A stretch of DNA of 39,092 nucleotides from Syntrophaceae bacterium (GCA_003141195.1 PLLC01000080.1:21624-60715), one strand, 5' to 3'. Shown: positions 2,514 through 35,004, counted from the stretch's first letter. Numbers and translations: made by a program. Notes: generated from the letters alone by a model not told the origin.

Positions 2514-4029
2514 ATTTTGGTGTACGCCGCATGAAGTAGACGAGGGGAACGATGAGGAGCATGAGGACGGTCAAAAGATAGAAGACGTCATTGAAGGAGA
2601 GCATGGTCGCCTCCCTGATGAGGCGCTGATAGATCAGCCCCATCCCGCCCTGGGCGGCCTGGCTGGCTTCGATACCCTTCTCCAGCAGGGTCCGGGCGCT
2701 TTGCTGTGCGCTCAGCACATAGGCGGGGTCGAAAGGGGTCAGGTGCTCCGTCAAGCGGGCCTGGTGGACCTGGGCCTGTCGGGCCAGGATCGTCGCGGAT
2801 AGTGCAACCCCGAAGCTTCCGCCCAGGTTGCGGAGCAGGTTGAAGACGGCGCTGGCGTTGCCCATTTCCTCCTTCCGGATATGCGACAGGGAAATCGTGG
2901 TTAAGGGAATGAAGACAAAGGCCACCCCGATCCCCAGCATGATCCGGGGCCAGACAACCGCATTGAAATCGACCTGAAGGTTGAACCGGGACATCTGATA
3001 CGATGCATAAGCCGTTACCAGTATCCCGAAGAGGATCAGCCATTTGGGATTCCCCCGCGAGACGAGCTGGCCGACGATGGGCATGCACAGGAGGTTGGCG
3101 ACGCCGCCCGGCCCGAGGACGAACCCCGAGAGGGTCGCCGTGTAGCCCATGAGGGTCTGAAGATAGATGGGCAGCATGACGATGCTGCCGAAGAGGTTCA
3201 TCACGACGAAAAACAGGATCACGTTGCCGAGGACGAAGGTGGCGTCCTTGAAAACTTTAAGGTCGACGATGGGCTCCTTCACGGTCCGTTCCACAAGAAT
3301 GAAGAAAACCAGGGCAGCAACGCTGGCCACGGTCATCCAGGTGATGAGATCCGAAGAAAACCAGTCCTCCCGCTGGCCCCGGTCGAGAATCAGTTGCAGG
3401 CAGCCGACGCCGACGGTCAGGAGAATGAGCCCCCAGTAGTCGATCTTCATTTTCGTCTTTTTCATGTAAGGCGGGTCGAAGATGAAGAGGATCGTCATGA
3501 AGATGGAGATGATCCCGAAGGGTATGTTGACGAAGAAGATCCAGTGCCAGGACCAGCTGTCCGTAATCCAGCCGCCCAGGACCGGCCCGATGATCGGCCC
3601 GAACATGATCCCGATCCCGAATATCGCCATCGCCATCCCGTGCTGATAGACGGGAAAGGTTTCGAGCAGAATCGATTGGGAAATGGGTTGCAGGGCTCCG
3701 CCTGCGAGGCCCTGAAGGACCCGGAAGACTACGAGACTCTGAATGCTCCAGGAAAGCCCGCAAAAAAGCGAGCTTACGGTAAAGAGGGCGACGGAGGAGA
3801 TCAGGTAGCGCTTGCGGCCGAAAAGGCGGCTGAGCCACCCCGCCATGGGGATGATAATGGCGTTGGCGGCGAGGTACGAGGTGATGGACCAGGTGGCCTC
3901 GTCGATGCCGGCGGACAGGCTCCCACGGATGTGATCCAGGGAGACGTTGACGACGGAGGTATCCACGATCACCATCAGCGTGGGAATCATCACCGTCAAG
4001 GCAACGAGCCACTTGTTGACCCTGGGCAT
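2512..4029 (-). CDS. emrB: DHA2 family MFS efflux permease (EmrB/QacA)
   Basis: DTSVVNVSL, WSITSYLAA, GWLSRLFGRKR, RVLQG, GPVLGGWI, WHWIFFVNIP motifs; many hydrophobic helices. Confidence 0.92.
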   Translation of the reverse strand: MPRVNKWLVALTVMIPTLMVIVDTSVVNVSLDHIRGSLSAGIDEATWSITSYLAANAIIIPMAGWLSRLFGRKRYLISSVALFTVSSLFCGLSWSIQSLVVFRVLQGLAGGALQPISQSILLETFPVYQHGMAMAIFGIGIMFGPIIGPVLGGWITDSWSWHWIFFVNIPFGIISIFMTILFIFDPPYMKKTKMKIDYWGLILLTVGVGCLQLILDRGQREDWFSSDLITWMTVASVAALVFFILVERTVKEPIVDLKVFKDATFVLGNVILFFVVMNLFGSIVMLPIYLQTLMGYTATLSGFVLGPGGVANLLCMPIVGQLVSRGNPKWLILFGILVTAYASYQMSRFNLQVDFNAVVWPRIMLGIGVAFVFIPLTTISLSHIRKEEMGNASAVFNLLRNLGGSFGVALSATILARQAQVHQARLTEHLTPFDPAYVLSAQQSARTLLEKGIEASQAAQGGMGLIYQRLIREATMLSFNDVFYLLTVLMLLIVPLVYFMRRTPK

Positions 4030-4035
4030 AGGGCT

Positions 4036-9322: not shown

Positions 9323-9523
9323 TTATAATGGCTGTACGTTCACTGCGGCAGGACCCTTATTGCCCTGCTCGATGTCAAAGCGAATTCTCTGACCCTCATA
9401 AAGCGTCTTGAAGCCTTCGCCCTGAATGGCACTGAAATGTACAAAGACATCCCCGCCTTCATCATTCTCGATAAAGCCAAACCCTTTCTTCTCGTTGAAC
9501 CACTTTACCTTACCTTCTGCCAA
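9323..9523 (-). CDS. csp: Cold-shock protein (CspA family)
   Basis: GKVKWFN, KGFGFI (RNP1), DVFVHFSAI (RNP2), GFKTL; TTG start. Confidence 0.96.
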
Positions 9524-9764
9524 TGCTGTACACCCCCCTTTCCTAAGATTTGTTCAAGCGGGCTTCGCATCCTGGAGGCATAAAAAAACCACCCCTTCTC
9601 AGAATCGAGTCCTGAACCAGTGGTGGCTTGATTGTCTGCAAGATATGAACACCCAACTTTTCCCTGCCCCGCCCTTCTTCGTTATCTCATCAAATCCAAC
9701 GGACGAGCTATTTCCCGGGCGGATGTGTGTGCCTAACATCGATTTTTTGAAAATGCAAGCATTT

Positions 9765-10027
9765 TTTATCAATTTGATGGCAGGCCGCCCAATGGTCCTC
9801 ACCGTCCTCTTCCAATACCGGTTCCCGTTGTTCGCAGATTCCCATCCGCAAGGGACACCGAGGATCGAAGGCGCATCCCGGCAGCGGATCTGCGGGCGAG
9901 GGCATCTCCCCGCGCAGGATCGTCCGTTCCGACTTCCGCACGAGAACGTCCTCCCCTTCGAACCGGATCAACCCCGCCGACGATCCGCCTGGAGGGCGAA
10001 GGAACCAGCCTCGGGATGGAGAGGGCC
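9765..10027 (-). pseudogene. Collapsed remnant of oligopeptide ABC ATPase gene(s) (oppD/oppF-like)
   Basis: ALSIPRLVPSPSRRIVGG/(shift)IRFEGEDVL joined to the C-terminal ILRGEMPSPADPLPGCAFDPRCP...C...HWAACH domain. Confidence 0.75.
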
Positions 10028-10033
10028 AGAACC

Positions 10034-11545
10034 TTATTTTTTCCCCATCCGATACCCGTTCCGAAGAAACTGGATCAGGAGACGGACCCCCACACCTGAT
10101 GCACCCTTGGGGATGTATGGTTTTTCTTTTGTGAGCCAGGCGGGACCGGCGATGTCCAGATGGACCCAGGGGTAACCGCCGGTGAATTTGCTCAGAAACG
10201 CGGCCGCCGTGATGGCCCCGCCCGCCCTGCCGCCGGAATTCTTGTAATCCGCGGCATCTCCCTTGATCAGTTCATGATACTCCTCCCAGAGCGGCAGCTC
10301 CCACACCTTTTCCCCGGTGAGCTCGGCGGCCACACGGATCTCCCGTTTGAGATCGTCGTCCGTTCCCATCATGCCGATCACGTGATCGCCCAGGGCCACG
10401 ATACAGGCCCCCGTCAGGGTCGCCAGGTCGATGATCGCGGCGGGCTTGTAACGGCCGGCGTAGGTCAGGGCGTCTGCGAGGATCAGGCGTCCTTCGGCGT
10501 CGGTCGTCACGACCTCGATCGTCCGGCCCGAGAAGGATTTGAGAATATCACCCGGTTTGTACGCCTTCCCGCCCGGCAGGTTTTCCGTCGCCGGTACGAT
10601 CCCGACCAGATTCACCGGCAGGCCGAGCTCCGCTGCGGCCCGGACGACCGCAATCACCGCCGCCCCGCCCGCCATGTCCGTTTTCATCTGGTCCATCTTA
10701 TCGGACGGCTTGATGGAGATCCCACCGCTGTCGAAGGTGATCCCCTTACCGACCAGGGCGATGACCGGACTCGACTTCTTCCCCCCGCGGTATTCAAGTA
10801 TGATCAACTGAGGCGGCTCGTCGCTTCCCCGGGCCACGCCCAGGAGGGCATTCATCCCAAGTTCATTCATCTGGCCGGCATCGAGCACCGTACAGCGGAT
10901 GTTCCTCCCCTTGGCGCTTTCTCTGGCCTCGTTCGCAAGATCGGACGGGGTCATCTCATTCGCCGGCGTGGAAACGATATCCCGCGCAAAGGTGGCCGCG
11001 GCGGAGATGATTTCGGCCGTTTTCGCCGCGGCCCGGATAACCTTGTAAGTCCCCTCTTCCGCCACCAGGATCGTAAACCCCGCGACCTCGCGGCTCTGTT
11101 CCCGATCGAGGGTCTTGAACGGCAGAAATTGGTAAAGACCGAGGATAACCCCTTCTACGGCGGCCTCCGCCATCCGTTCGAGTGGAAAATCTATATTCTG
11201 GATGTTCAGCGAGGTAGAAAACTCGCTGATGTTCAGGGAACGGATCTGCTGCGCGGCCCTGGCGAATGCTTCCCGCAGACGATCCGGCGAGAAATCCAGT
11301 CTCTTCCCCAGCCCCACGACGACGATCCGCTTGACCGGAAGATCCCCCCGGGTATAGAGCACGGCGATCTGGTTCGTCCGGCCCGTAAAATCACCCCGGT
11401 GGAGGATCTCTCCAATCAGACCGCCACTCCTTTCATCCAGCAGGGCGGTAACGCCCGTAAGCCCGGTTTCGCCCTCGAAGAGGGTCACAACCGCCGCTTC
11501 GGTCATATGCTCCGGCAGACTGCCCGTTCTGACTTGAATCTTCAT
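10034..11545 (-). CDS. pepA: Leucyl aminopeptidase (M17)
   Basis: GKGITFDSGG, MKTDMAG, TTDAEGRL, DLATLTGAC, WVHLDIAG; start ATG 11545 after GGAGGAGG. Confidence 0.95.
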   Translation of the reverse strand: MKIQVRTGSLPEHMTEAAVVTLFEGETGLTGVTALLDERSGGLIGEILHRGDFTGRTNQIAVLYTRGDLPVKRIVVVGLGKRLDFSPDRLREAFARAAQQIRSLNISEFSTSLNIQNIDFPLERMAEAAVEGVILGLYQFLPFKTLDREQSREVAGFTILVAEEGTYKVIRAAAKTAEIISAAATFARDIVSTPANEMTPSDLANEARESAKGRNIRCTVLDAGQMNELGMNALLGVARGSDEPPQLIILEYRGGKKSSPVIALVGKGITFDSGGISIKPSDKMDQMKTDMAGGAAVIAVVRAAAELGLPVNLVGIVPATENLPGGKAYKPGDILKSFSGRTIEVVTTDAEGRLILADALTYAGRYKPAAIIDLATLTGACIVALGDHVIGMMGTDDDLKREIRVAAELTGEKVWELPLWEEYHELIKGDAADYKNSGGRAGGAITAAAFLSKFTGGYPWVHLDIAGPAWLTKEKPYIPKGASGVGVRLLIQFLRNGYRMGKK

Positions 11546-11785
11546 ATCCTCCTCCACGCAGGGATTATTCTCCAGGCCCCCTGCCCATGACAAACATCTT
11601 GGTTGAGCGGGGAATTTCCGAAAGGTGATTTCACCGTCAGGATAACACAAGAAGGACAAAAGTCAATTTTGAACCAGGAATAATCGGATGAAATTATGGC
11701 CGCCTCCACGCTTCTGATAGGCATGAGCGCCCTTAAACCAGGATTGCCCTGCGGTGGTCAAAAAAGGCGTCTGCAACCGGCGCGC

Positions 11786-11822
11786 AAAAAAAAGGGGCAA
11801 GCCGAAGATCGCTGCCCCCTTT
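11786..11822 (-). terminator. Terminator after the tRNA pair
   Basis: Minus strand ggggcagc...gcttgcccc followed by T8. Confidence 0.75.
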
Positions 11823-11828
11823 AACGTC

Positions 11829-11904
11829 TGGAGGCGGCATCCGGATTTGAACCGGAGAATAACGGTTTTGCAGACCGCTGCCTTAGCCACTTGGCTATGC
11901 CGCC
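11829..11904 (-). tRNA. tRNA-Cys (GCA)
   Basis: GGCGGCATAGCCAAGTGG...CTGCAAA...GGTTCAAATCC...GCCGCCTCCA; cloverleaf with encoded CCA. Confidence 0.97.
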
Positions 11905-11918
11905 GTTCGGAGAAAAAA

Positions 11919-11993
11919 TGGAGCGGGCGAACGGATTTGAACCGTCGACGTCCACCTTGGCAAGGTGGCACTCTACCACTGAGTTACGCCCGC
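11919..11993 (-). tRNA. tRNA-Gly (GCC)
   Basis: GCGGGCGTAACTCAGTGGTAGAG...TTGCCAA...GGTTCAAATCC...CCCGCTCCA. Confidence 0.97.
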
Positions 11994-12013
11994 TCAGTTT
12001 GTGATGGCGCGTG

Positions 12014-12041
12014 ACTATAACAAATAAAATCCGTTTGTCAA
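12014..12041 (-). promoter_or_regulatory. Stable-RNA-type promoter for tRNA-Gly/Cys
   Basis: TTGACA-16 nt-TATAGT with TGn extension, GC-rich discriminator CACGCGCC and AT-rich upstream region. Confidence 0.7.
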
Positions 12042-12160
12042 TAAAATAATTGTCCCTTTCGCACCTCAAACCCATCGGCGGGTCTAGATCATTTCAATAA
12101 TATTTTCAATTGCTTTTGATACTCTGCCCTCCCCCGAAAAAAGATGCCGTTGTGGAGGTT

Positions 12161-12772
12161 TCAGGCCTTTTTCCGGATGCCGGTCTGGTAAAATTTGAGA
12201 AAGTAATCGATCCCGGAGGTGACCGTAAGAAACAGGGCGATGAAAAGGATCACCATGCCGACCGCATGGGCGTCGGCGCCGATGAACGGGTAATGGATCA
12301 TCAGCGCGGAGACGGCGAAGATCTGGCAGAGCGTCTTCCGCTTCCCCAGTGGGCTTGCCTGAATGACCATCCCTTCGGAGGAGGCGATGTTGCGGATGCC
12401 GTCCACGGCGAAATCCCGGATAATGATGAGGGCAACGATCCAAGCGGGGATCCGGCCGATCGGGATCATCAGGATCATTGCCGTGTTGACGATCAGCTTG
12501 TCGGCGATCGGATCGAGGAACTTGCCCATCGTCGTGACGATCTCAAATCTCCGGGCAATGTATCCGTCGAGAAGATCGGTCAGGGCCGCTCCGATGAAGA
12601 GGATCGTGATGACAAGGCTCATGGCCGGTCCCGGGGAGAAGAGGAGGCCGAAAAGCACGGGGATCACCCCGATCCGGAGCATGGTGATCGTATTGGGGAG
12701 GTTAAAAATCGCTCTCCTGTCCTCCGGAATGGGCAACCGGTCAAACGACCGCTTCAGAAAATCGATCATCAC
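12161..12772 (-). CDS. pgsA: CDP-diacylglycerol--glycerol-3-phosphate 3-phosphatidyltransferase
   Basis: NLPNTITMLRI, TDLLDGYIARR, GKFLDPIADK; conserved position upstream of tRNA-Gly-Cys. Confidence 0.95.
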   Translation of the reverse strand: MMIDFLKRSFDRLPIPEDRRAIFNLPNTITMLRIGVIPVLFGLLFSPGPAMSLVITILFIGAALTDLLDGYIARRFEIVTTMGKFLDPIADKLIVNTAMILMIPIGRIPAWIVALIIIRDFAVDGIRNIASSEGMVIQASPLGKRKTLCQIFAVSALMIHYPFIGADAHAVGMVILFIALFLTVTSGIDYFLKFYQTGIRKKA

Positions 12773-12796
12773 GGGGAATCTCCTCGCATTCCCGTT

Positions 12797-13072
12797 TTAC
12801 TTTTTTCCATACTGTTCCAGACATTTCTGAGAGCAGAAATAGACTGTCCTCCCGTCGATCTCCGTCCGGAAGGCCTGGCTCAACGGAACGTAGATATGGC
12901 AGTGAGGATCTTCCACAAGTTCCTCGCCGGCAGCGGGGGTTTGGATCCTTGCCGAACCGGGCTTCCCGCCGACCGCCGGAAAGCTCTTACGGATCAGCTT
13001 GTACAGGAGATAAATCACGATAATGCCGATGACCCACCTGAGTATCATCTTTATATTGCCCCTCATCATCAT
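12797..13072 (-). CDS. Small membrane-anchored YHS/TRASH-domain protein (alternative start 13048)
   Basis: N-terminal TM helix; LVEDPHCHIYVP...YFCSQKC. Confidence 0.8.
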   Translation of the reverse strand: MMMRGNIKMILRWVIGIIVIYLLYKLIRKSFPAVGGKPGSARIQTPAAGEELVEDPHCHIYVPLSQAFRTEIDGRTVYFCSQKCLEQYGKK

Positions 13073-13113
13073 CGTTTCTTCCGCGGCTGATCCGCCTCGG
13101 ATCGTTCATTCGC

Positions 13114-24941: not shown

Positions 24942-25886
24942 TTAGGTCTTCCCTCCTCCGGCCCGCGGATGGGCACGGTCATAGATCTCCATCAGCCGGC
25001 TCACACTGACCGATGTGTATTTCTGCGTCGATGAAAGACTCTTGTGTCCCAGCATCTCCTGAATGGAACGCAGATCGGCGCCCGCATCCAGAAGATGGGT
25101 GGCAAAGGTGTGCCGCAGCGCATGGGGGCTGATCTTCCGCCCGATCCCGCTCTCCCGGACCACCCATTCCACCACCCGCGAGACGCCCCGCGGATTCATT
25201 CTTTTCCCCCTGGTGCTGAGGAAAAGGGCTTCCTGCCCTTCCTCATCCGTTCCCTCCTTCCGAAGCTCCGGCCGTTTCTGCAGGTAGGCTTCCATCGCCA
25301 GCAGGGCCGGCCGCCCAGCTGGGACGATCCGTTCCTTCCGCCCCTTCCCCCGGACCTTGACGAGCCCTTCCTGAAAACGAATATCCCCGAGGTTCAGCCC
25401 CGTCAGCTCACTCAGGCGGATCCCCGCGGAATAGAAAAGCTCGATCATTGCGCGGTCCCGGCGTCCGGCCGCATCCTCTGCAAATTTCACCTGGAGGAGC
25501 GCCAGCATTTCATCCGCCGACAGGACGACGGGGATGTATTTCTCGCACCGGGGGAGCTGCACGAGCTCCGCGGGGTTGACCGCCACCACCCCCTCCCGGA
25601 GAAGGTACCGGTAGAAGGAGCGCAGCGCCGCCACCTTCCGGGAGATGGTCACCTTCCGGAGTTTCTCCCGGTACAGCGAGGCCAGAAAAGAACGGATCAC
25701 CAGCGGATCCGTGGGGATCGCCCCTTCCACCCCGCCGGAGGGGACAGATTTCAAATCTGTCCCCTCCAAAAAGGCCCGGAACTGTTTCAGATCGGTTAGA
25801 TACCCCTCCCTGGTATGGGAGGAGAGATTCCTCTCGACCTTCATGTATCTGCCAAACTCGCCGATGGCCTGCTCCAGAAGACCCAT
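24942..25886 (-). CDS. xerC: Tyrosine recombinase XerC
   Basis: RNLSSHT..Y..DL, RDRAMIELFYSAGIRLSEL, GKGRKER, HALRHTFATHLL, LGH...STQKY; upstream of hslVU; alternative start 25898. Confidence 0.93.
   Translation of the reverse strand: MGLLEQAIGEFGRYMKVERNLSSHTREGYLTDLKQFRAFLEGTDLKSVPSGGVEGAIPTDPLVIRSFLASLYREKLRKVTISRKVAALRSFYRYLLREGVVAVNPAELVQLPRCEKYIPVVLSADEMLALLQVKFAEDAAGRRDRAMIELFYSAGIRLSELTGLNLGDIRFQEGLVKVRGKGRKERIVPAGRPALLAMEAYLQKRPELRKEGTDEEGQEALFLSTRGKRMNPRGVSRVVEWVVRESGIGRKISPHALRHTFATHLLDAGADLRSIQEMLGHKSLSSTQKYTSVSVSRLMEIYDRAHPRAGGGKT
25737..25767. repeat. Palindromic element inside xerC (extended to 31 bp)
   Basis: ggaggggacagattt c aaatctgtcccctcc, read in frame as [10 protein letters not shown]. 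Confidence 0.95.
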
Positions 25887-25900
25887 CTGTTGCCTCATCA

Positions 25901-25962
25901 GGGGACAGATTTCAAATCTGTCCCCAGTATTCCAGTGTCCCAAATCTGTCCCCAGTGTCCCC
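25901..25962. repeat. Palindromic element upstream of xerC (25901-25925) plus partial copies (25941-25953, 25954-25962)
   Basis: ggggacagatttcaaatctgtcccc ... caaatctgtcccc agtgtcccc. Confidence 0.95.
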
Positions 25963-26013
25963 AGGATCTTCCCGGCCGTCCCTTCGTGGCGGGAAGGAAA
26001 AAAGGGGATCCTT

Positions 26014-26514
26014 TCACATCTTGTACTTTCCAAAATCCTCCGGGGAGAGATTTTCAAGGAACTCCGAGAGTTTTTCCTTCTTCAGCCGGTCCAGATCGGT
26101 CATCTTCGTCCCGAAATCGATATTCCGGGACTTTTCGATCACCCGGTCCTCCACGAAGATCGGGGCGCCGGCCCGGAGGGCAACGGCGATCGCGTCGCTG
26201 GGACGGGCATCGACGATAATGGAGTCTCCCTTGAGCAGGAGGTGGAGATTTGCGAAGAAGGTGTTGTTCCGGAGATCGTGGATCTCCACCCTGGTCACCA
26301 CGACCTTCAGGACCTTGAGGATCTCGTTCAAGAGGTCATGGGTCATGGGGCGTGAAAAGCTTATCTTCTCGATCTCCGTTGCGATAGCGCTCGCCTCAAA
26401 GATGCCGATCCAGATAGGGATCGCTTTCTTCTCTTCGAGGTCTTTCAGGATGACGATCGGGGTATTGGTGATCGGATCCATCGTCAGACCCGACACCTTC
26501 ATCTCAATGAACAT
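26014..26514 (-). CDS. Bifunctional nuclease family protein (DUF151)
   Basis: PIVIL, IPIWIGIFEASAIA, RPMTHDL, DARPSDAIAVALR; start MFIEMKV after GAGGAGG. Confidence 0.93.
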   Translation of the reverse strand: MFIEMKVSGLTMDPITNTPIVILKDLEEKKAIPIWIGIFEASAIATEIEKISFSRPMTHDLLNEILKVLKVVVTRVEIHDLRNNTFFANLHLLLKGDSIIVDARPSDAIAVALRAGAPIFVEDRVIEKSRNIDFGTKMTDLDRLKKEKLSEFLENLSPEDFGKYKM

Positions 26515-27847: not shown

Positions 27848-28034
27848 ACCTCCGCTTCCTCACCGAAACATCCTGAAAGTGCATTAATATAGGAAGGGGG
27901 GATAGTCAATACCTTTTTACAGGGATTATTGAAAATCCGGCAGGGAATTCCCTTTCATATTTCCTGGAAGAACATCATAATGTAGGTGTTCATCTTTGTC
28001 CCTGTAACGGCACCGGTTATAAAATACAGATAGG

Positions 28035-28829
28035 TCAGCCCCGCGATCCGAGTCTCAAACCTCCGTGGATAAAGAATACTTCGCCCGCGATCGCCTCATT
28101 CCGGAAAAGCTCGCATACCAGCGAGGCAATTTCTTCCGGTTCTATCAGACGGCCGATGGGGACATCGTCGAGAATTTTGTTCAGGGCCTTGCCGTCCATC
28201 CCTTTGACCATGGAGGTGGCCACGTAGCCGGGTGCAACCGCTACACAGCGGATGCGGCCCGTCAGGTTTCTCCGGAAAAACTCGGCGGTAATAACCTTCG
28301 GAATCACGGATATGGCCGCCTTGGAGGAAGAATAGTTGATTTGACCTGCCGTACCCAATGATCCGGTCGACGACATGAGACAGAGCAGTCCTTTTGAGCC
28401 GGAATTGATCATCTGTTCCGCACACTCCCGGATCGTTAAAAAGACACCGATCAGGTTAATATCCAGAACGGACTGAAATTGCCCCAGCGACATTTTCTGA
28501 TTCACTTTTCCGGTCTCTCTGTCCGTTGAAAGCAGCAGTCCGTCCTTGATGATGCCTGCACAGGGAAGCACGAGATTGATGGCTCCGAATGTCTCGATGG
28601 CAAGGACGGCCAGCCGACGGTTATCTTCCTCCTTCGTCACATCGCAAAGGGTAGACTGGACCTCCCCGCCCAGCTTGACGATTTCCTTTTCCACCCGCGA
28701 AAGATTCTCCGGGATGACGTCGGCAATGACGACCCTGCCGCCTCGCTGCACCCAGTATTTCGCAAAGGCCTCCCCGATGCCGCTTCCGGCACCCGTGATC
28801 ACCGCAACCGCATCCTTGATCTCCAGCAT
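28035..28829 (-). CDS. SDR oxidoreductase (FabG/3-hydroxyacyl-CoA dehydrogenase-like, probably NAD-preferring)
   Basis: TGAGSGIG, Asp at end of beta2 (IADV), catalytic S...YSSSK, APGYVAT. Confidence 0.9.
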   Translation of the reverse strand: MLEIKDAVAVITGAGSGIGEAFAKYWVQRGGRVVIADVIPENLSRVEKEIVKLGGEVQSTLCDVTKEEDNRRLAVLAIETFGAINLVLPCAGIIKDGLLLSTDRETGKVNQKMSLGQFQSVLDINLIGVFLTIRECAEQMINSGSKGLLCLMSSTGSLGTAGQINYSSSKAAISVIPKVITAEFFRRNLTGRIRCVAVAPGYVATSMVKGMDGKALNKILDDVPIGRLIEPEEIASLVCELFRNEAIAGEVFFIHGGLRLGSRG

Positions 28830-28989
28830 CGACAATCCCTCTCAATCGTTCCGCAATATAATTATGTTTCAGACACCTTGATCCCTGTCACAAGAGGATT
28901 CCAAATCCATTTTGAATCAGCGCAGCGGGAACGCCGCACGGCATCCTTTCGAGTAAATTGCTGCCTGAAAGGGTTCTGACGGGTCATAC

Positions 28990-29691
28990 TTACGAACGAG
29001 TCACGAAGTAGTTTTCTGCGTAATCCAGATGTGTCAGAATGGCTTCCCTCGCCTTTTCCGGGTTTCGTTCCCGGATGGCGCTGAGGATCGCATGATGCTG
29101 TTGCAGCAGGCGTTCTTTGTTCACCGTTTCCGTGAACATGATCTGCCTTGTTACCCGCTGGGTCTGATGCAATAGAGCCAACAGTGTAGAAGCGATATGG
29201 GAAAGGACGGTGTTTTGCGTGGCCCGATAAATGGACAGATGAAAGCGAACGTCCGCGTCCACACCCAGTTCGTCATTTTGGAAATCCCGTTCCAGGTCCT
29301 GGTAAACCGTTTCGAGGGTCTGTATATTTTCCTCCGTCGCCAGCCGGCTTGCCTCGGCAGCCGCCCAGGATTCCAATATCTTACGCACCTCCAGCAACTG
29401 GACAACCATGGCGGCATCGCCCTGAATGACTTTCGCCAGAGGATTCTGGAGGGAGAAATCGGCTACGGACTTGACGACGCTCTTGCGCCGCTGCCTGATT
29501 TCAATGAAACCGAGACATTCCAGCGTTTTCAGAGCTTCCCGCAGGGGAGGTCGGCTGACACCTAATTTTTCCGCGATCTCCCGCTCGGAAGGAAGGGAAT
29601 CGCCCGGCTTGAGACGACCATCTTTGATCAGGCCGATCATCTGTTCGACGATTTCATCGGAAAATCGTTTTCGCGGCAGGGTGGTAAACAT
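28990..29691 (-). CDS. GntR/FadR-subfamily transcriptional regulator (LldR/GlcC/PdhR-like)
   Basis: LKPGDSLPSEREIAEKLGVSRPPLREAL wHTH; FCD domain with DVRFH, N, QHH, THL; start ATG 29691 after GGAG. Confidence 0.93.
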   Translation of the reverse strand: MFTTLPRKRFSDEIVEQMIGLIKDGRLKPGDSLPSEREIAEKLGVSRPPLREALKTLECLGFIEIRQRRKSVVKSVADFSLQNPLAKVIQGDAAMVVQLLEVRKILESWAAAEASRLATEENIQTLETVYQDLERDFQNDELGVDADVRFHLSIYRATQNTVLSHIASTLLALLHQTQRVTRQIMFTETVNKERLLQQHHAILSAIRERNPEKAREAILTHLDYAENYFVTRS

Positions 29692-29750
29692 CGTGTCTCT
29701 CCATCGTTTTGGTTCCCATAGCATGGCGCATCCCTGATTGTCAATACGGT

Positions 29751-29767
29751 ATCTGATATTACCAGAT
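29751..29767. promoter_or_regulatory. Candidate FadR-type operator (regulator-proximal)
   Basis: Near-palindrome atctgatattaccagat, next to a minus-strand TTGACA at 29739-29744. Confidence 0.55.
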
Positions 29768-29856
29768 ATCCTGAAAAGGGATTGATTACAAAGCGCTAAC
29801 ATAATCATTGTATAATTGAGTAAGTACAGATATCTTGCCGATGGCGAAGAAAATTC

Positions 29857-29895
29857 TTGACAGGGATTTTCTTTTGCCATATTGGTCATACCAGA
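29857..29895 (+). promoter_or_regulatory. Mutase-operon promoter region with FadR-type operator TGGTcatACCA (29883-29893)
   Basis: TTGACA at 29857; TGGT-N3-ACCA matches the LldR/PdhR/GlcC-type operator core. Confidence 0.6.
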
Positions 29896-30022
29896 CGATT
29901 GATTACAGAAGCGGCGTTCGGCAGTCTCGAGAATCCCCTCTCCGCACCCGATGATCATCCTGATCGCAGGATCTGCAAAAGATTGACTTTGGCAACAAGC
30001 TTAAAAGAGGAGAACAGGTCCC

Positions 30023-31783
30023 ATGAACGGCAAGGAAAGAACAACCAAGGAAATCCTGACCGAAAAAAGTTCGGCCCGAAAGCGGACACCCCTGTACAAC
30101 CCGGCCGCCGTGAAGATCCTGCGCAAGGAATTCTCCGGATGGATGCAGTCCGCGGTGCGGGAGAAGGACCGCAAGGACTGGTTCAAAACGCCCCGGACGG
30201 TACTGGGATCGGATATTCCCCGGGAAATGCTCTACACCCCCCTGTCCCACCCCGATTTCGACTACCGGGAGGACCTGGGAAATTCCGGCCAGGAACCCTT
30301 CACCCGGGGGATCCACGCCAACATGTACCGCGGCAGGGAATTCACCATGCGCCAGCTCACCGGTTTCGGGTCTCCCGAGGACACGAACGAGCGGATCAAG
30401 TTCATGCTGGACCACGGTGCGACGGGTCTGAACATCCTCTTCGACATCCCCACGATCCAGATGTACGACTCCGACGATCCCCTTTCCCAGGGCCAGGTGG
30501 GGATGTCCGGCGTTTGCGTCGATTCGGTCGATGACATGGATCTCCTCTTCCAGGATATCCGTCTGGACGAAATTACCGCATCCATCGTCACCCATTATCC
30601 GTCCAACACGGCGATTCTCTTTCCCATGTTCCTGGCCCTCGCCGAGCAAAGGGGAATCCCCTGGGAAAAGCTGCGGGGCAGCGTCCAGAACGACACCTCC
30701 CTGGAGGAGCTGATCCGCAGCGGCGCGGAATTTATCGCGCCGCGGGACTGCTTTCGGGTGCAGTGCGACAACATCGAATTTATCCGGAAAAATGTGCCCC
30801 AGTGGAATTTTATCACCCTCAACGGTTACAACCTGCGCGAATTCGGAACATCCGGGATTACGGAAATGGCCGTCGCCGTGGCCAACGGCATCGCGACCCT
30901 CGAGGAGATGGTGCGCCGCGGATACGACGTGGATTCGGTAGCGGACCGCCTATCGTTCTTCTGGTCGCCGGCGAGCGATTTCTTCGAAGAGGTGGCCAGG
31001 CTCCGGGCCGTTCGCCGGCTCTGGTACAAGATCATGAAACACCGATTCCATGCGAAGAACCCCCGATCCATGTGGATGCGCTGCCATGTCCAAACCTCCG
31101 GCGTATCCCTGGTCCAGCAGGAACCCCTGAACAATGTCATCCGGGCGGCGTATCACGCCCTCTCCGCCGTTCTGGGCGGCGCGCAGTCGCTGCACGTTGA
31201 CTCCTACGACGAGGCCTACTCCGTCCCGACGGAGGAGGCGGCGCTCCTGTCTCTCCGAACCCAGCAGATCCTCCAGGAGGAGACGGGGATCATTGATGTG
31301 GTGGATCCACTGGGCGGCTCGTATTACATCGAGACCCTGACGAGCGACATCGAAAAGAGGATCCTGGACGAGGTGGATGAAATCGAAAGAGCGGGAGGGT
31401 ATGTGTCCGCGATCGAATCGGGACAGCTCCACCGGAAAATCTCCGCCTACTTCTATAACCAGCAGAAGGAGATCGAAAAGGGCGATATCAGGATCGTTGC
31501 CTATAACCGATACAAGTCCGAGGCGCCGCCCCCCCCCATTAACGTGTTCCGGTATCCCGGGGGCGTGGAGGAGCGGCAGCGGGAAAAACTGGCCCGGTTG
31601 CGGCTCAGCCGGAACAACGAACGGGTGGGCGTCGCCCTGGCGGAACTCAAAGAGGCCTGCAAAAAAGGTGTCAACATCCTGCCTTGTAGCGTCGCCTGCG
31701 CCCGCGTGCGCTGCACCGAAGGGGAACTGTTCAAGGTCTTCAAGGAAGCATTCGGGTTGTGGAAACCCCCGGCCCTCTGGTAG
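30023..31783 (+). CDS. B12-dependent acyl-CoA mutase, large (substrate-binding) subunit, non-canonical active site
   Basis: PFTRGIH..MYR, TMRQLTGFG, GSVQND, HVQTSG, NNVIR, GGAQSLHVDSYDEA, DPLGGSYYIE; no B12-binding domain. Confidence 0.93.
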   Translation: MNGKERTTKEILTEKSSARKRTPLYNPAAVKILRKEFSGWMQSAVREKDRKDWFKTPRTVLGSDIPREMLYTPLSHPDFDYREDLGNSGQEPFTRGIHANMYRGREFTMRQLTGFGSPEDTNERIKFMLDHGATGLNILFDIPTIQMYDSDDPLSQGQVGMSGVCVDSVDDMDLLFQDIRLDEITASIVTHYPSNTAILFPMFLALAEQRGIPWEKLRGSVQNDTSLEELIRSGAEFIAPRDCFRVQCDNIEFIRKNVPQWNFITLNGYNLREFGTSGITEMAVAVANGIATLEEMVRRGYDVDSVADRLSFFWSPASDFFEEVARLRAVRRLWYKIMKHRFHAKNPRSMWMRCHVQTSGVSLVQQEPLNNVIRAAYHALSAVLGGAQSLHVDSYDEAYSVPTEEAALLSLRTQQILQEETGIIDVVDPLGGSYYIETLTSDIEKRILDEVDEIERAGGYVSAIESGQLHRKISAYFYNQQKEIEKGDIRIVAYNRYKSEAPPPPINVFRYPGGVEERQREKLARLRLSRNNERVGVALAELKEACKKGVNILPCSVACARVRCTEGELFKVFKEAFGLWKPPALW

Positions 31784-31847
31784 CGGCGGCCGGCGCCGCC
31801 GGAAAGAATCCCGTTCCAGGGACAGGACAACAGGAGGTCAACGATCC

Positions 31848-32252
31848 GTGGCAAAGAAAATCAAGGTGCTTTTGGCAAAGTTGGGTCTGGACGTGCATAA
31901 CAGGGGAATTATCACCGTGGCTAAGGAACTGGGAGATGCCGGCATGGAGATCGTCTACATCGGGAACTCCCTCCCCCGGGAAATCGTCCAGACGGCCATC
32001 CAGGAGGATGTGGACGTGATCGGGGTCAGTTCGCTGGGCGGCGCCCATCTCACTCTCGGCAAGCCGCTGATCGATATCGCCCGGCAGGAAGGGCTGACGG
32101 ACAGCGTGGTCTTTGTGATCGGCGGCGTCTTTCCCCCGGACGATACGGTCCGCCTGAAAGAAAGCGGGTTTGACGCCGTGTTCACGCCGGGCGCCACCCG
32201 GGACGAAATCGTTCACACCGTTCAGGGGTTGGTGGAGAAGAAAACGATTTGA
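31848..32252 (+). CDS. Acyl-CoA mutase small (cobalamin-binding) subunit
   Basis: LAKLGLDVHNRG (DxHxxG), SSLGGAH, GGVFP, FTPG; GTG start after AGGAGG. Confidence 0.93.
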   Translation: MAKKIKVLLAKLGLDVHNRGIITVAKELGDAGMEIVYIGNSLPREIVQTAIQEDVDVIGVSSLGGAHLTLGKPLIDIARQEGLTDSVVFVIGGVFPPDDTVRLKESGFDAVFTPGATRDEIVHTVQGLVEKKTI

Positions 32253-32298
32253 ATGACCTCAGGTCATCCGAATAGATCATCGCTGGAGGTGAAACAAG

Positions 32299-33705
32299 AT
32301 GAAGATGCAATGGCCGCCTGTATACAATCCATCCTATTTTCCGGCGCCGGACGAGCCTTACTGGAACAGGACCCTGGAAACGATGGATCCCGGCGAAAGA
32401 GAGCAGCGGGTCATCCTGCCCAAACTCCAGGCGCAACTGACTTATGCCTACGAGAACTCGCCCTTTTACCGAAAAAAATGGGACGAGGCCGGGATCAAAC
32501 CCCAGGATATCCGGTCTCTGAAGGACTTCGAGAAGATGCCCTGCGTCACGAAGGAGGAGATCCGCCGGGATCAGGTGGAATATCCGCCTTTCGGCAGCAA
32601 TCTGTGCGTGCCTCCCCGTGAACTGGCCCGTGTCCAGGGAACTTCGGGGACGACGGGAAAACCGACCGCGTTCGGGATCAGCCGGGGAGACATGGCCCGC
32701 ATCGCGGAGGCGCACGCCCGGATCATGTGGGGTTTCGGAGTCCGGCAGGACGACATCGTTTTCATCGGCTCCTTTTTCAGCCTCTACTGGGGAAGCTGGG
32801 GGGCCCTCCTGGGGACGGAGCGTCTCGGCGCCGCCGCCTTTCCCTTCGGTGCAGGCGTCCCGGGCCAATCAGAAAGGGGCCTCGAGTGGATGAAGGAGGT
32901 AAAGCCGACCGTTTTCTATGGAACGCCCTCCTACAGTCTCTATCTGGCGGAAAAGGCCCGGGCGATGGGAATAGACCCGAGGAAGGATTTCAATTTCCGC
33001 ATTCTCTTCTTTTCCGGTGAACCCGGCGCCGGGGTTCCTTCGACGAAAAAAAGGATCGAGGAGACCTACGGGGGCATCTGCATCGACAGCGGGTCCACCG
33101 CCGAAATGGCCCCCTGGATGGCCGACAGCGAATGCGCCCATCGCAAGGGAATGCATTTCTGGCAGGATATCGTTTACGCGGAGCTGGTCGACCGCGAGAC
33201 CCACAGGAGGGTGCCCTACGGCCAGGAAGGGGTCACCGTCTATACCCATCTCGAGAGGAACTCGCAACCGATGATCCGCTTCTGGGCCGGGGATATTGCT
33301 CTCTGGGTGAATGATCCCTGTCCCTGCGGCCGCACTTACCCCCGCCTGCCGAAGGGAATCTACGGGCGGGCGGATGACATGTTCGTGATCCGCGGCGAGA
33401 ACGTCTATCCGAGCGCCATAGAAAACGTGATCCGCGGCATCGAGGGGATGGGTGACGAGTTTAGGATTGTCATCACCCGGGAAAAGACCATGGACGAGAT
33501 GACCGTCCAGGCGGAGCGCTCACCCCAGGCCGATCCGGCAATCATGCCCGCGCTGAAGTCCAGGCTCGCGGGGGAACTGAAATCGCGCGGCCTTCGGGCC
33601 GTCGTGCAACTGATGGAACCGGGAACGCTGGAAAGAACGGAATTCAAGGCAAAAAGGGTGATCGACCAGCGACGTATCCATGACGAGATCACCGGTCGGA
33701 AATAG
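32299..33705 (+). CDS. Acyl-CoA ligase of the PaaK/Hcl (2-hydroxyisobutyrate-CoA ligase-like) group
   Basis: GTSGTTGKP, AHARIMWG, FSLYWGSWGAL, FPFGAG, GTPSY, SGEPG, GRADDM, KAKRVID. Confidence 0.88.
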   Translation: MKMQWPPVYNPSYFPAPDEPYWNRTLETMDPGEREQRVILPKLQAQLTYAYENSPFYRKKWDEAGIKPQDIRSLKDFEKMPCVTKEEIRRDQVEYPPFGSNLCVPPRELARVQGTSGTTGKPTAFGISRGDMARIAEAHARIMWGFGVRQDDIVFIGSFFSLYWGSWGALLGTERLGAAAFPFGAGVPGQSERGLEWMKEVKPTVFYGTPSYSLYLAEKARAMGIDPRKDFNFRILFFSGEPGAGVPSTKKRIEETYGGICIDSGSTAEMAPWMADSECAHRKGMHFWQDIVYAELVDRETHRRVPYGQEGVTVYTHLERNSQPMIRFWAGDIALWVNDPCPCGRTYPRLPKGIYGRADDMFVIRGENVYPSAIENVIRGIEGMGDEFRIVITREKTMDEMTVQAERSPQADPAIMPALKSRLAGELKSRGLRAVVQLMEPGTLERTEFKAKRVIDQRRIHDEITGRK

Positions 33706-33723
33706 TTCCCCCCTTTCCCGACC

Positions 33724-33767
33724 AAACCCGCCGCCGGGTTCTGTTTTGACCCGGTGGCGGGTTTCTT
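33724..33767 (+). terminator. Strong hairpin / terminator after the CoA ligase
   Basis: aaacccgccgccgggtt-loop-gacccggtggcgggttt followed by ctt. Confidence 0.7.
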
Positions 33768-33831
33768 CCGAAGCTAGTCTTGCATCTATGGTCGAGCGGC
33801 CAACTAAAAAAGGAGATTCCTCACCAACCCC

Positions 33832-35004
33832 ATGATCCAGCGAATCAGAACCCTCCAGGATCTTCTCGTCAAATCGGGCATGGCCGCCGCCGTGGTCTGG
33901 TATTCCCGGGACCTCCTTTACTACACCGGCACATGCCAACCTTCCTGGCTCGTCATTCTGCCAGACACTTACCGGCTCTTCGTCCGCAGTGGTTATGCGG
34001 AGGCAAAAAGGCAGGTCACCATCGGTGCCGATCATCTGGAGGAAGAGCGGGACGCGGAGCGGCTTGTCCTATACCTGTGTGACCATGGGGTAGCCAAGGG
34101 CTCCATCATCGGCATGGAACTGGATGTCCTTCCCGTAAATACCTGGCGGCAGTGGTGCAACCGGATACCGGACTGGAACCTGGCGGATGTGACCCCGCTG
34201 ATCCTCGAGCAGCGTCAGATCAAGGACGGCTCAGAAATCGAGAGCATCCGGCGGGCCTGCCGTGTCATGGACCTGGGACACGACCGTATCCGGGCCACGC
34301 TGAAGGCCGGAATGACGGAGCTTGAGGTGGCTGCTGCCATAGAGGATGTACACCGCCGAGAGGGGCACGCGGGAATCTATTTCATGCGTCATCCCGACTT
34401 TTTCATGGCCCGCGGTCTGTGCGCCTCCGGACCGAATCTGATGCGCCTCTCGGGTCCCGCTTTTTCCCTGTCGGGCGTGGGGCTGGACGCCGCCGTACCC
34501 GCGGGGCCGTCCCTCCGGGTGATCCGTCCGGGAGATTCCGTTCTCATCGACATTCCCGTCCTCGTCGGGGGATACCATGTGGACATGGCCCGGACCTATA
34601 CGGCGGGTGCCGCCGACCGGCGCAGGCGGGACCTGCACGGAAAATTAGAACAGCTCTTTGCATTCGCGGCATATATTCTGCGGCCGGGCATGACCTGGGG
34701 TCAGGGATACCAGGCGGTGGAGGAGCAGGCGGACCTGTTGGGCATCGGGAACTTTTTCCAGCGGATGGTCAGCGGCGGGAAGCTCCATTATATCGGACAT
34801 GGCGTGGGTATGGAAATCAACGAGCCCCCCTTGGTGACGGCACGGAACGGGGACCCCATCCTTGCCGGAACGGTTCTTGCCCTGGAGATGCACCTCCTTC
34901 AGGAGAACGCCTTCGCTTTGAAGATGGAGGATATGCTCCTCATCGGCGAAGAGGAAAATGCGTTTATGACCCGGACTCCGCGGACCCTCCTGGAGGTCCT
35001 CTAA
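33832..35004 (+). CDS. M24 (Xaa-Pro aminopeptidase/creatinase-fold) hydrolase
   Basis: DLLYYTG, IKDGSEI, D...YHVDMART, GHGVGMEINEPP, LALE, MEDM metal-ligand pattern. Confidence 0.85.
   Translation: MIQRIRTLQDLLVKSGMAAAVVWYSRDLLYYTGTCQPSWLVILPDTYRLFVRSGYAEAKRQVTIGADHLEEERDAERLVLYLCDHGVAKGSIIGMELDVLPVNTWRQWCNRIPDWNLADVTPLILEQRQIKDGSEIESIRRACRVMDLGHDRIRATLKAGMTELEVAAAIEDVHRREGHAGIYFMRHPDFFMARGLCASGPNLMRLSGPAFSLSGVGLDAAVPAGPSLRVIRPGDSVLIDIPVLVGGYHVDMARTYTAGAADRRRRDLHGKLEQLFAFAAYILRPGMTWGQGYQAVEEQADLLGIGNFFQRMVSGGKLHYIGHGVGMEINEPPLVTARNGDPILAGTVLALEMHLLQENAFALKMEDMLLIGEEENAFMTRTPRTLLEVL

Follow-up and report, generated by a model that had tools for sequence, protein, structure and literature searches.

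A mutase-ligase operon of a Syntrophaceae bacterium with a probable role in the catabolism of 2-hydroxyisobutyrate or a very close acid

Described mutase-ligase systems and the six-gene locus

According to the available text of PMC7176365, the metabolism of 2-hydroxyisobutyrate (2-HIBA) has been demonstrated in few, mostly aerobic, isolates, and the ligase gene hcl lies in an operon-like arrangement together with hcmAB or rcmAB, which encode the mutases, and with meaH, usually with a gene for a GntR regulator upstream on either strand. The rcmAB-hcl genes of Kyrpidia tusciae DSM 2912 are presented in the same text as a second mutase type with hcl, unrelated to HcmAB. A cluster of this general design was found at positions 28035 to 35004 of a 39,092-nucleotide stretch of DNA from Syntrophaceae bacterium (GCA_003141195.1 PLLC01000080.1:21624-60715), the whole of which is referred to below as the window. 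It comprises genes for the two subunits of an acyl-CoA mutase, a ligase resembling 2-hydroxyisobutyrate-CoA ligase (HCL), a regulator, a short-chain dehydrogenase/reductase (SDR) and an M24 metallohydrolase.

A further group of related systems comes from anaerobes, which, as far as the available texts of PMC7888143 and PMC8084838 describe them, already use a 2-hydroxyisobutyryl-CoA mutase and an SDR-type dehydrogenase for acetone; the undescribed anaerobic route suggested in the initial annotation of the window therefore has precedents. In the available part of PMC8084838 (Frey et al. 2021), high amounts of both mutase subunits and of an "Xaa-Pro aminopeptidase" are recorded for acetone, butanone and isopropanol, and a path from acetone via 2-hydroxyisobutyryl-CoA and 3-hydroxybutyryl-CoA to acetoacetyl-CoA was proposed. 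Mutase activity, as the accessible portion of PMC7888143 has it, was shown only for Desulfococcus biacutus and, in extracts, for Desulfosarcina cetonica (therein citing Frey 2018), and the mutase of these two organisms is given as about 47% identical to the Desulfotomaculum arcticum member of the clade to which the window's mutase belongs (PMC8084838, text available in part). The acetone-pathway SDR yielding acetoacetyl-CoA was first annotated as 3-oxoacyl-ACP reductase (ACP, acyl carrier protein; PMC7888143, in the portion available), an annotation of the same kind as that received by the SDR of the window, and both hosts are anaerobic. The gene order in Desulfococcus and Desulfosarcina, taken from the locus tags in the accessible text, is SDR, MeaB, small subunit, large subunit, unlike that of the window.

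Gene calls were made from open reading frames (ORFs), and protein families were assigned with Pfam and NCBIfam. All six genes were present in the order and on the strands first reported. The features of the locus are as follows (lengths in amino acids, aa):

28035..28835, minus strand: SDR oxidoreductase, 266 aa (Pfam adh_short, E 2e-35)
28990..29691, minus strand: GntR/FCD (FadR-subfamily) regulator, 233 aa (PF00392, E 4e-19; PF07729, E 3e-26)
29750..29768: imperfect palindrome TATCTGATA-T-TACCAGATA, a possible second operator (inverted repeat I6)
29883..29893: operator-like palindrome TGGTCATACCA of the FadR/GntR type, between the regulator and mutase genes
30023..31783, plus strand: acyl-CoA mutase large (substrate-binding) subunit, 586 aa (PF01642, E 8e-168)
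31848..32252, plus strand: mutase small subunit, adenosylcobalamin-binding, 134 aa (PF02310, E 1e-17)
32299..33705, plus strand: HCL-type (PaaK-like ANL) ligase, 468 aa (phmmer against PDB 6hdw, E 6.6e-161)
33725..33740, plus strand: weak terminator-like hairpin with a 6-bp stem, between the ligase and M24 genes
33832..35004, plus strand: M24 (Creatinase_N plus pita-bread) metallohydrolase, 390 aa (PF00557, E 2e-33; PF01321, E 3e-13)

The divergent GntR/FCD regulator, the large and small mutase subunits and hcl together are the published mutase-HCL cluster minus meaH, as that cluster appears in the available text of PMC7176365, so the "unknown branched or 2-hydroxy acid" of the initial annotation, and its view of the route as undescribed, did not stand. 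With hcl-hcmAB-meaH of Aquincola tertiaricarbonis L108 the window shares the three-step logic, the GntR regulator, the mutase subunits and hcl. It differs in having a strictly anaerobic host, no meaH in the operon, an attached SDR gene and an attached M24 gene, and a mutase from another clade, in which Asp117 is replaced by Leu, the catalytic-site His by Asn, and Arg occupies the Gln208 position or the one beside it. RcmAB of Kyrpidia is an (R)-3-hydroxybutyryl-CoA-forming 2-hydroxyisobutyryl-CoA mutase whose host, unlike that of the window, is an aerobe. The lyase-HCL cluster of Actinomycetospora chiangmaiensis likewise couples HCL to a second enzyme consuming the same CoA ester; there is, however, no lyase orthologue in the window or its genome, and the ester would be rearranged here rather than cleaved. 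No hcl-mutase cluster was described for Syntrophales or related anaerobes in the main texts of the literature searched.

The sequence of ligase, mutase and SDR known from Aquincola, which had been proposed for the locus, is upheld: HCL and the ligase are related over nearly the full length, HcmA is the best solved relative of the mutase, and the SDR gene lies within the operon in two related loci (L012 and L041). It was also borne out that the window contains no MeaB, as a whole-genome search with PF03308 gave no match on its contig (C84), and that it lacks an epimerase and a carboxyltransferase, none being found among the scanned ORFs of the window, although these families were not searched for separately. 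The description of the locus as self-contained was only partly accurate, since the G-protein chaperone and the thiolase are absent from the cluster and encoded elsewhere in the genome.

With a probability of roughly two in three, this strictly anaerobic bacterium of the Syntrophales type uses the operon to catabolise 2-HIBA or a tertiary 2-hydroxy acid very close to it. Judged by its orthology, the HCL-type ligase would make 2-hydroxyisobutyryl-CoA, and the two-subunit adenosylcobalamin mutase, judged by its context, would then form 3-hydroxybutyryl-CoA by shifting the thioester carbon. The NAD-type SDR, encoded divergently, may oxidise this product to acetoacetyl-CoA, which one of the thiolases of the genome (at least seven thiolase genes lie over the Pfam cut-off) could split into two molecules of acetyl-CoA. 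The mutase would have to receive its chaperone in trans from the genome's one MeaB gene, on contig C64, the GntR/FCD protein would probably repress both divergent promoters via TGGTCATACCA until the acid or its CoA ester appears, and the M24 hydrolase may, more speculatively, free the acid from a conjugate. As the genome contains no lyase orthologue (the best thiamine pyrophosphate (TPP) enzyme is 33% identical) and no HGD-type dehydratase genes, the free acid, and not acetone, is the likely input.

Identity and genomic context of the ligase and mutase

Comparison of the ligase with solved structures (phmmer against PDB) gave 539 bits over residues 4-461 with 6hdw, the 2-hydroxyisobutyryl-CoA synthetase (HCL) of Aquincola, and 241 bits with the best PaaK, 2y27. 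The PaaK models of NCBIfam scored 275-280 bits against cut-offs of 646-700, and its identity to the three PaaK-like paralogues of this genome is 32-36%. By these scores the ligase is classed as an HCL orthologue and not as a generic PaaK.

HcmA and HcmB of Aquincola (4r3u) are among the best solved relatives of the two mutase subunits. For the large subunit, HcmA of 4r3u was the best match at 423 bits, followed by human methylmalonyl-CoA mutase (MCM) at 363 and MCM of P. shermanii at 334. The small subunit matched TIGR00640 over the cut-off (112 bits), retains the DxHxxG motif as DVHNRG, and has 2yxb (102 bits) and HcmB (4r3u_C, 91 bits) as solved relatives; it starts at a GTG codon at 31848, with AGGAGG at 31832-31837, 10 nt upstream. 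Three other large subunits are encoded in the same genome and are 37-46% identical to that of the window. The copy at C25:22475-24154 (46%) bears the MCM signature Tyr/Arg/His, and that at C64:4156-5952 (42%) bears a Phe/Gln/His signature of the isobutyryl-CoA mutase (ICM) type and adjoins the MeaB gene (C64:6625-7404), which was the one strong match of the PF03308 search, a weak one being located on C68. The third, at C40:13483-15120 (37%), is divergent, with SGTH in place of SGYH and STGGMG in place of HxQTSG.

A search of 1.84 billion representatives returned the mutase clade's own representative at 695 bits and 53% identity, the next at 483 bits and 42%. A tree of 57 rows (the window and 13 clade members, the C25 and C40 paralogues, 40 representatives and one extra genome match) was then built, leaving out 12 fragments and fusions outside 520-640 aa, among them the C64 copy, which was shortened by the choice of start. 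The window mutase and its relatives formed a distinct clade with an SH-aLRT support of 100, whose sister (support 93) was the pair of representative P0125 and a mutase of genome G397. The latter belongs to an operon (L094, G397:C27, 8491-11979, minus strand) of large subunit, small subunit and HCL-like ligase, which are 44%, 42% and 45% identical to their counterparts in the window. Its pocket carries Leu, Val, no Arg, and Tyr-Asn, and P0125 also has Val at the position of HcmA Asp117. G397 was the single HCL-like match in a sample of 401 genomes of the phylum of D. arcticum, a phylum that probably does not include Kyrpidia, and no Kyrpidia protein was found among the named relatives of the window's clade or its sister. 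RcmA of Kyrpidia is said to have Val at the Asp117 position, which, if so, fits the hydrophobic residue found there in both hcl-linked clades (Leu/Ile in one, Val in the other). The named relatives of the sister clade were themselves anaerobes (Desulfotomaculum sp., Peptococcaceae, Metallumcola, Desulfobaccales and Syntrophales), and one TGA was reported inside the ligase match of G397.

Gene neighbourhoods were compared in 80 loci kept from a scan of a genome collection, with large subunits 63-97% identical to that of the window, from Thermodesulfobacteriota, Chloroflexota, Actinomycetota, a metagenome-assembled genome (MAG) labelled Bathyarchaeia, two cultured Desulfotomaculum-type species and others. 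Mutase and ligase were linked: in 60 loci the sequence extends 2.3 kb or more past the large subunit, and an HCL-like ligase (at least 55% identity) was present in 46 of these, directly after the small subunit in 43 and behind an inserted dehydratase-like gene pair in three. The loci with the ligase are spread over Thermodesulfobacteriota, Chloroflexota, Bathyarchaeia-labelled and other MAGs. The regulator and the SDR were partly retained, regulator homologues (at least 30% identity) adjoining the mutase in 22/80 loci and SDR orthologues (at least 55%) occurring in 11/80, with those of L012 and L041 following the ligase immediately and in the same orientation; the M24 gene was variable (orthologues in 4/80). 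The gene identities, the tight linkage of ligase and mutase, the orthology with HCL and the clade membership of acetone-induced mutases are regarded as established.

Other neighbours also bear on the chemistry of the module. A TPP enzyme lies beside it, preceding the mutase, in 7/80 loci, and that of L036 scored 522 bits against a solved actinobacterial 2-hydroxyacyl-CoA lyase (7pt1) and 223 against oxalyl-CoA decarboxylase. The entry 7pt1, deposited as a 2-hydroxyacyl-CoA lyase, is taken by us to be the Actinomycetospora enzyme that cleaves 2-hydroxyisobutyryl-CoA; if so, the neighbouring lyase would be a second enzyme for the same CoA ester. Pairs of HGD-D genes (2-hydroxyacyl-CoA dehydratase/benzoyl-CoA reductase-like) follow the small subunit in L013, L020, L021, L023, L025, L057, L074 and L077, accompanied in L074 by activases of the BcrAD/BadFG type. 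GlcD-like FAD oxidase pairs and TRAP transporters flank the module in L028, L035 and L041, the last also with a LarA-like racemase, which suggests that further 2-hydroxy acids are taken up and interconverted in these organisms. The chemistry of 2-hydroxy acids is common to the HGD-like pairs, the GlcD-like oxidases, the racemase and the transporters.

The two cultured species provide the link to acetone. Their loci, L074 of Desulfotruncus arcticus DSM 17038 and L077 of Desulfoscipio geothermicus DSM 3669, encode mutases that are 64-65% identical to that of the window and have the same pocket. The order in L074 is Zn-dependent alcohol dehydrogenase, M24, sigma-54 activator, mutase large subunit, mutase small subunit and MaoC, then two HGD-D genes, two activase genes, enoyl-CoA hydratase and thiolase, which matches the acetone-induced cluster 04035..04022 as given in the accessible part of PMC8084838. 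The Desulfotomaculum acetone clusters thus have mutase large subunits of the window's clade and also an M24 gene, which is acetone-induced in D. arcticum according to the available text, the M24 proteins being 26-27% identical to that of the window. In contrast to the window, they add the sigma-54 activator, the 2-hydroxyacyl-CoA dehydratase-like genes, MaoC, MeaB and thiolase and have no HCL, an absence that fits the remark, in the part of PMC7176365 available, that acetone degraders do not need HCL.

Substrate pocket and alternative explanations

Pocket columns were taken from alignments with solved structures and from a further one covering 76 homologues; counting along the alignment confirmed that the tag of 4r3u causes an offset of 11 residues. 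Residue numbers for MCM (P. shermanii Tyr89, Arg207 and His244), ICM and 2-hydroxyisobutyryl-CoA mutase (HCM) are those we assume to apply, the MCM residues having been seen in the alignment with 1req, and the specificity positions of ICM are presumed to be Phe and Gln. At the position of MCM Tyr89 and HcmA Ile90 the window mutase has Leu112 (L63/I13 over the homologues), a conservative difference from HcmA. The mutase is not an MCM, because the equivalents of Tyr89 and His244 are absent (Leu, Arg and Asn instead), and not an ICM, because the Phe/Gln pair is absent (Leu and Arg instead); the claim that its signature differs from those of MCM, ICM and HCM was therefore correct for the residues compared. 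The pocket, as aligned, departs from that of every solved mutase.

The same pocket supplies several of the observations that weigh against 2-HIBA as the substrate. Leu139 occupies the position of HcmA Asp117, which reportedly holds the substrate hydroxyl, in a column that is L47/I29 over the 76 homologues. Arg232, present in 76/76, stands at or next to the column of MCM Arg207 and HcmA Gln208. Where HcmA and MCM have the Tyr-His pair of SGYH, the window mutase has Tyr269-Asn270 (NGYN), with both residues kept in 76/76, Asn270 being the equivalent of MCM His244. The only representative with an HcmA-like signature (P0133; I / STDFD / QK / SGYH) falls in the other half of the tree. The placement of Arg232 is itself an alignment-based assignment, as a one-residue insertion lies beside it: HMMER and L-INS-i aligned it with Arg207 and MAFFT --auto placed it off by one, so that its pointing into the pocket is tentative. 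Further points on the same side come from genomic context. No MeaB or meaH gene lies on the contig of the window; the ligase is absent from 14/60 loci (ten Actinomycetota, L020, L023 and the two Desulfotomaculum loci); and HCL is missing from both Desulfotomaculum genomes, where the best match is 39% identical. MeaB is found in most of the ligase-less Actinomycetota loci, several of which encode a phosphotransacylase and, upstream, a UTRA-type GntR regulator as well. The Desulfotomaculum evidence on the mutase clade is proteomic, the exact acid of the ligase is assigned from overall similarity, and we know of no natural source of 2-HIBA in peat.

These residues form the basis of an alternative in which the substrate is a carboxylated tertiary 2-hydroxy acid, with Arg232 binding the second carboxylate and M24 or M20 hydrolases releasing the acid from an amide; citramalate, for example, could be activated at C1 and converted to 3-hydroxyglutaryl-CoA, followed by SDR oxidation or glutaconyl-CoA metabolism. 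The invariance of Arg232 and its alignment with Arg207 in two of the alignments are as this explanation would have it, and the changes of His244 to Asn and of Asp117 to Leu/Ile do separate the pocket from that of HcmA. Amidohydrolases recur near the mutase (M24 in 9/80 loci and M20-type in Actinomycetota), and carboxyltransferase and Na+-decarboxylase proteins, unexplained in the available text of PMC8084838, were co-induced with the clade mutase in acetone degraders. The ligase, however, is far closer to the 2-HIBA-specific HCL than to any other solved enzyme, the adjacent lyase orthologues in 7/80 loci and the acetone induction point to an uncarboxylated C4 ester, one alignment moves Arg232 by one position, and the window holds no dicarboxylate-specific partner enzyme. 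A carboxylated substrate is on balance unlikely. The wider claim that the Arg232/Asn270/Leu139 pocket marks a new mutase specificity, with the clade and its own HCL-like branch rearranging a carboxylated tertiary 2-hydroxy acid released from amides by M24 or M20 enzymes, is decidedly unlikely; if true, it would represent an undescribed B12-dependent entry to glutaconyl- and crotonyl-CoA metabolism for anaerobes of peat, sediment and aquifers.

A role in ketone or alcohol metabolism, with 2-hydroxyisobutyryl-CoA formed from acetone and a C1 unit and the ligase salvaging acid lost by thioester hydrolysis, would agree with the acetone induction of clade members in two Desulfotomaculum species (reported in the available text of PMC8084838) and with the lyase orthologues preceding the mutase in several loci. 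The acetone degraders are, however, exactly the clade members that have no HCL, whereas hcl is part of the window's operon, and the regulator resembles sensors of 2-hydroxy acids. The genome of the window contains neither a lyase orthologue (33% at best) nor an HGD-type dehydratase, and as the lyase is missing, this role is considered highly improbable there. That an ordinary MCM or ICM and a phenylacetate-CoA ligase simply stand side by side, unconnected by any pathway, runs counter to the data and is scarcely credible, even though every named relative of the mutase bears the public label "methylmalonyl-CoA mutase", and the NCBIfam models nearest to the ligase are those of PaaK, at 275-280 bits. 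Those models need 646-700 bits, whereas the match to HCL reaches 539; the equivalents of Tyr89 and His244 and the Phe/Gln pair are missing; the genome already holds an MCM-signature copy (C25) and an ICM-signature copy with MeaB (C64); and mutase and ligase are tightly linked (46/60 loci). A mutase of the alkylsuccinate (ass) type was also considered and dropped, there being no ass-like or hydrocarbon-activation genes in the window and the ligase being HCL-like.

Catabolism of 2-HIBA or a very close acid thus remains the preferred explanation, and the finding usefully extends a known system without being new in kind, since both architecture and chemistry were known before. What is new is the type of host (strict anaerobes, among them Syntrophales and many others), an operon that lacks the chaperone gene, the attachment of the SDR and M24 genes and, above all, a mutase clade without an assayed member that has its own conserved pocket. 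The window and the 80 related loci indicate that the ligase-mutase module is common in uncultured strict anaerobes. 2-HIBA is met both as a fuel-oxygenate metabolite and as the acyl group in a common modification of lysine, and its natural source is not known to us. For the unknown mutases that have been the subject of speculation in anaerobic methyl tert-butyl ether/tert-butyl alcohol breakdown (PMC5852185), the clade provides a concrete candidate. One tested member would settle the role of the Arg/Asn pocket and would ground the Desulfotomaculum acetone pathway biochemically, and the clade is possibly a source of new enzymes for bio-based routes to 2-HIBA or methacrylate.

Regulatory region, accessory genes and genomic surroundings

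The regulator starts at the ATG at 29691, a longer ORF of 322 aa being an over-extension and not the gene. Its N-terminal GntR winged helix and C-terminal FCD domain place it by sequence in the FadR subfamily, and its nearest NCBIfam models are LldR, NanR, PdhR and GlcC, all under cut-off. The palindrome TGGTCATACCA matches what we take to be the operator consensus of this subfamily. It is the sole TGGTNNNACCA in the 39-kb window, and as 0.31 copies are expected there by chance, the single copy alone is not significant. Among 16 orthologous intergenic regions examined, however, TGGT(C/A)ATACCA occurs at 204-210 bases (191 in the window) in the seven nearest (L001-L006 and L009), a site of this type is found at other offsets in L012 and L037, and none is found in seven more distant regions. 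The second palindrome (29750..29768) has 9-nt arms that are 89% complementary; TGGTAATACCA or TGGTATTACCA occurs in the first 100 bases of the intergenic region of L005, L006, L009 and L012, at offsets of 36-83 (58 in the window). An exact 11-nt direct repeat, GATTGATTACA, is also located in the divergent intergenic region at 29780-29790 and 29897-29907, the second copy following immediately on the TGGTCATACCA site; L001 alone among the 16 related regions keeps GATTGATTACA, in one copy.

The best solved relatives of the SDR are the (3R)-hydroxyacyl-CoA dehydrogenase 2et6, FabG enzymes and 3-hydroxyacyl-CoA dehydrogenases of the HSD10 type. Both classical SDR motifs are present (TGxxxGxG at residues 14-21 and YxxxK at 168-172), and Asp39 after the second strand suggests NAD as the cofactor.

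No NCBIfam model matched the M24 protein over its cut-off, its best solved relatives, aminopeptidase P and prolidases, scored no higher than 81 bits, and a look-up in the ESM Atlas gave "M24 / creatinase family" clusters alone, with no functional lead. The metal ligands D240, D251, H323, E352 and E366, at positions presumed from prolidase motifs and from alignment to solved relatives, are kept in all nine aligned M24 proteins of both subtypes. Orthologues (at least 40% identity) were found in L005, L054, L059 and L061, and the close relatives L004, L007, L008 and L009 have no M24 gene despite enough room; in relatives, RNA-library contigs part from the window's sequence immediately behind the stop codon of the ligase. 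Six loci have a second M24 subtype, with 26-28% identity, in the vicinity of the mutase (L011, L014, L015, L061, L074 and L077); as L061 has both types, this adds five loci to those with M24, giving 9/80 in all. In the Actinomycetota loci L063, L067, L069, L073 and L076, an M20-type gene follows the small subunit. Metallo-amidohydrolases of three unrelated lineages thus recur beside the mutase clade, which keeps alive the idea of release of the acid from an amide. From this distribution, M24 is classed as an accessory, lineage-specific addition.

Contigs from RNA libraries (four runs from three studies, 90-100% alike) span portions of each of the six genes, which hints only weakly at expression given that DNA carry-over is possible, and uncovered parts of the stretch carry no meaning. 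Because these libraries were seen as assembled contigs only, no claim is made on expression level or operon transcripts. The scans gave 12 terminator-like sites against 8.1 expected and 7 promoter-like sites against 3.6 expected, excesses too weak to define transcription units, and the hairpin after the ligase gene has four G-C pairs in its stem and a poor T tail.

The genome comprises 3.27 Mb in 108 contigs and is 96% complete. The nearest public relatives of the mutase, at 92-97% identity, are from MAGs labelled Syntrophaceae, Syntrophales or Deltaproteobacteria, and DNA of the window was found in peat metagenome runs. Housekeeping genes flank the locus, encoding a MiaB-like radical-SAM enzyme, XerC, HslVU, dCMP deaminase and glycerol kinase and including arg and dap genes. 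A tyrosine recombinase of the XerC/XerD type is encoded at 24942-26057 (minus strand), directly upstream of hslV and hslU; XerC/D beside hslVU is a common bacterial arrangement and is therefore not taken to indicate a mobile element. At 9426-13090 on the plus strand, three ORFs in a row (249, 476 and 326 aa) had no Pfam match at E 0.001. The G+C content, about 0.58-0.62 elsewhere in the window, falls to 0.49 at 1-2000 and to 0.52 at 28001-30000, the latter dip spanning the regulator gene and the intergenic region.

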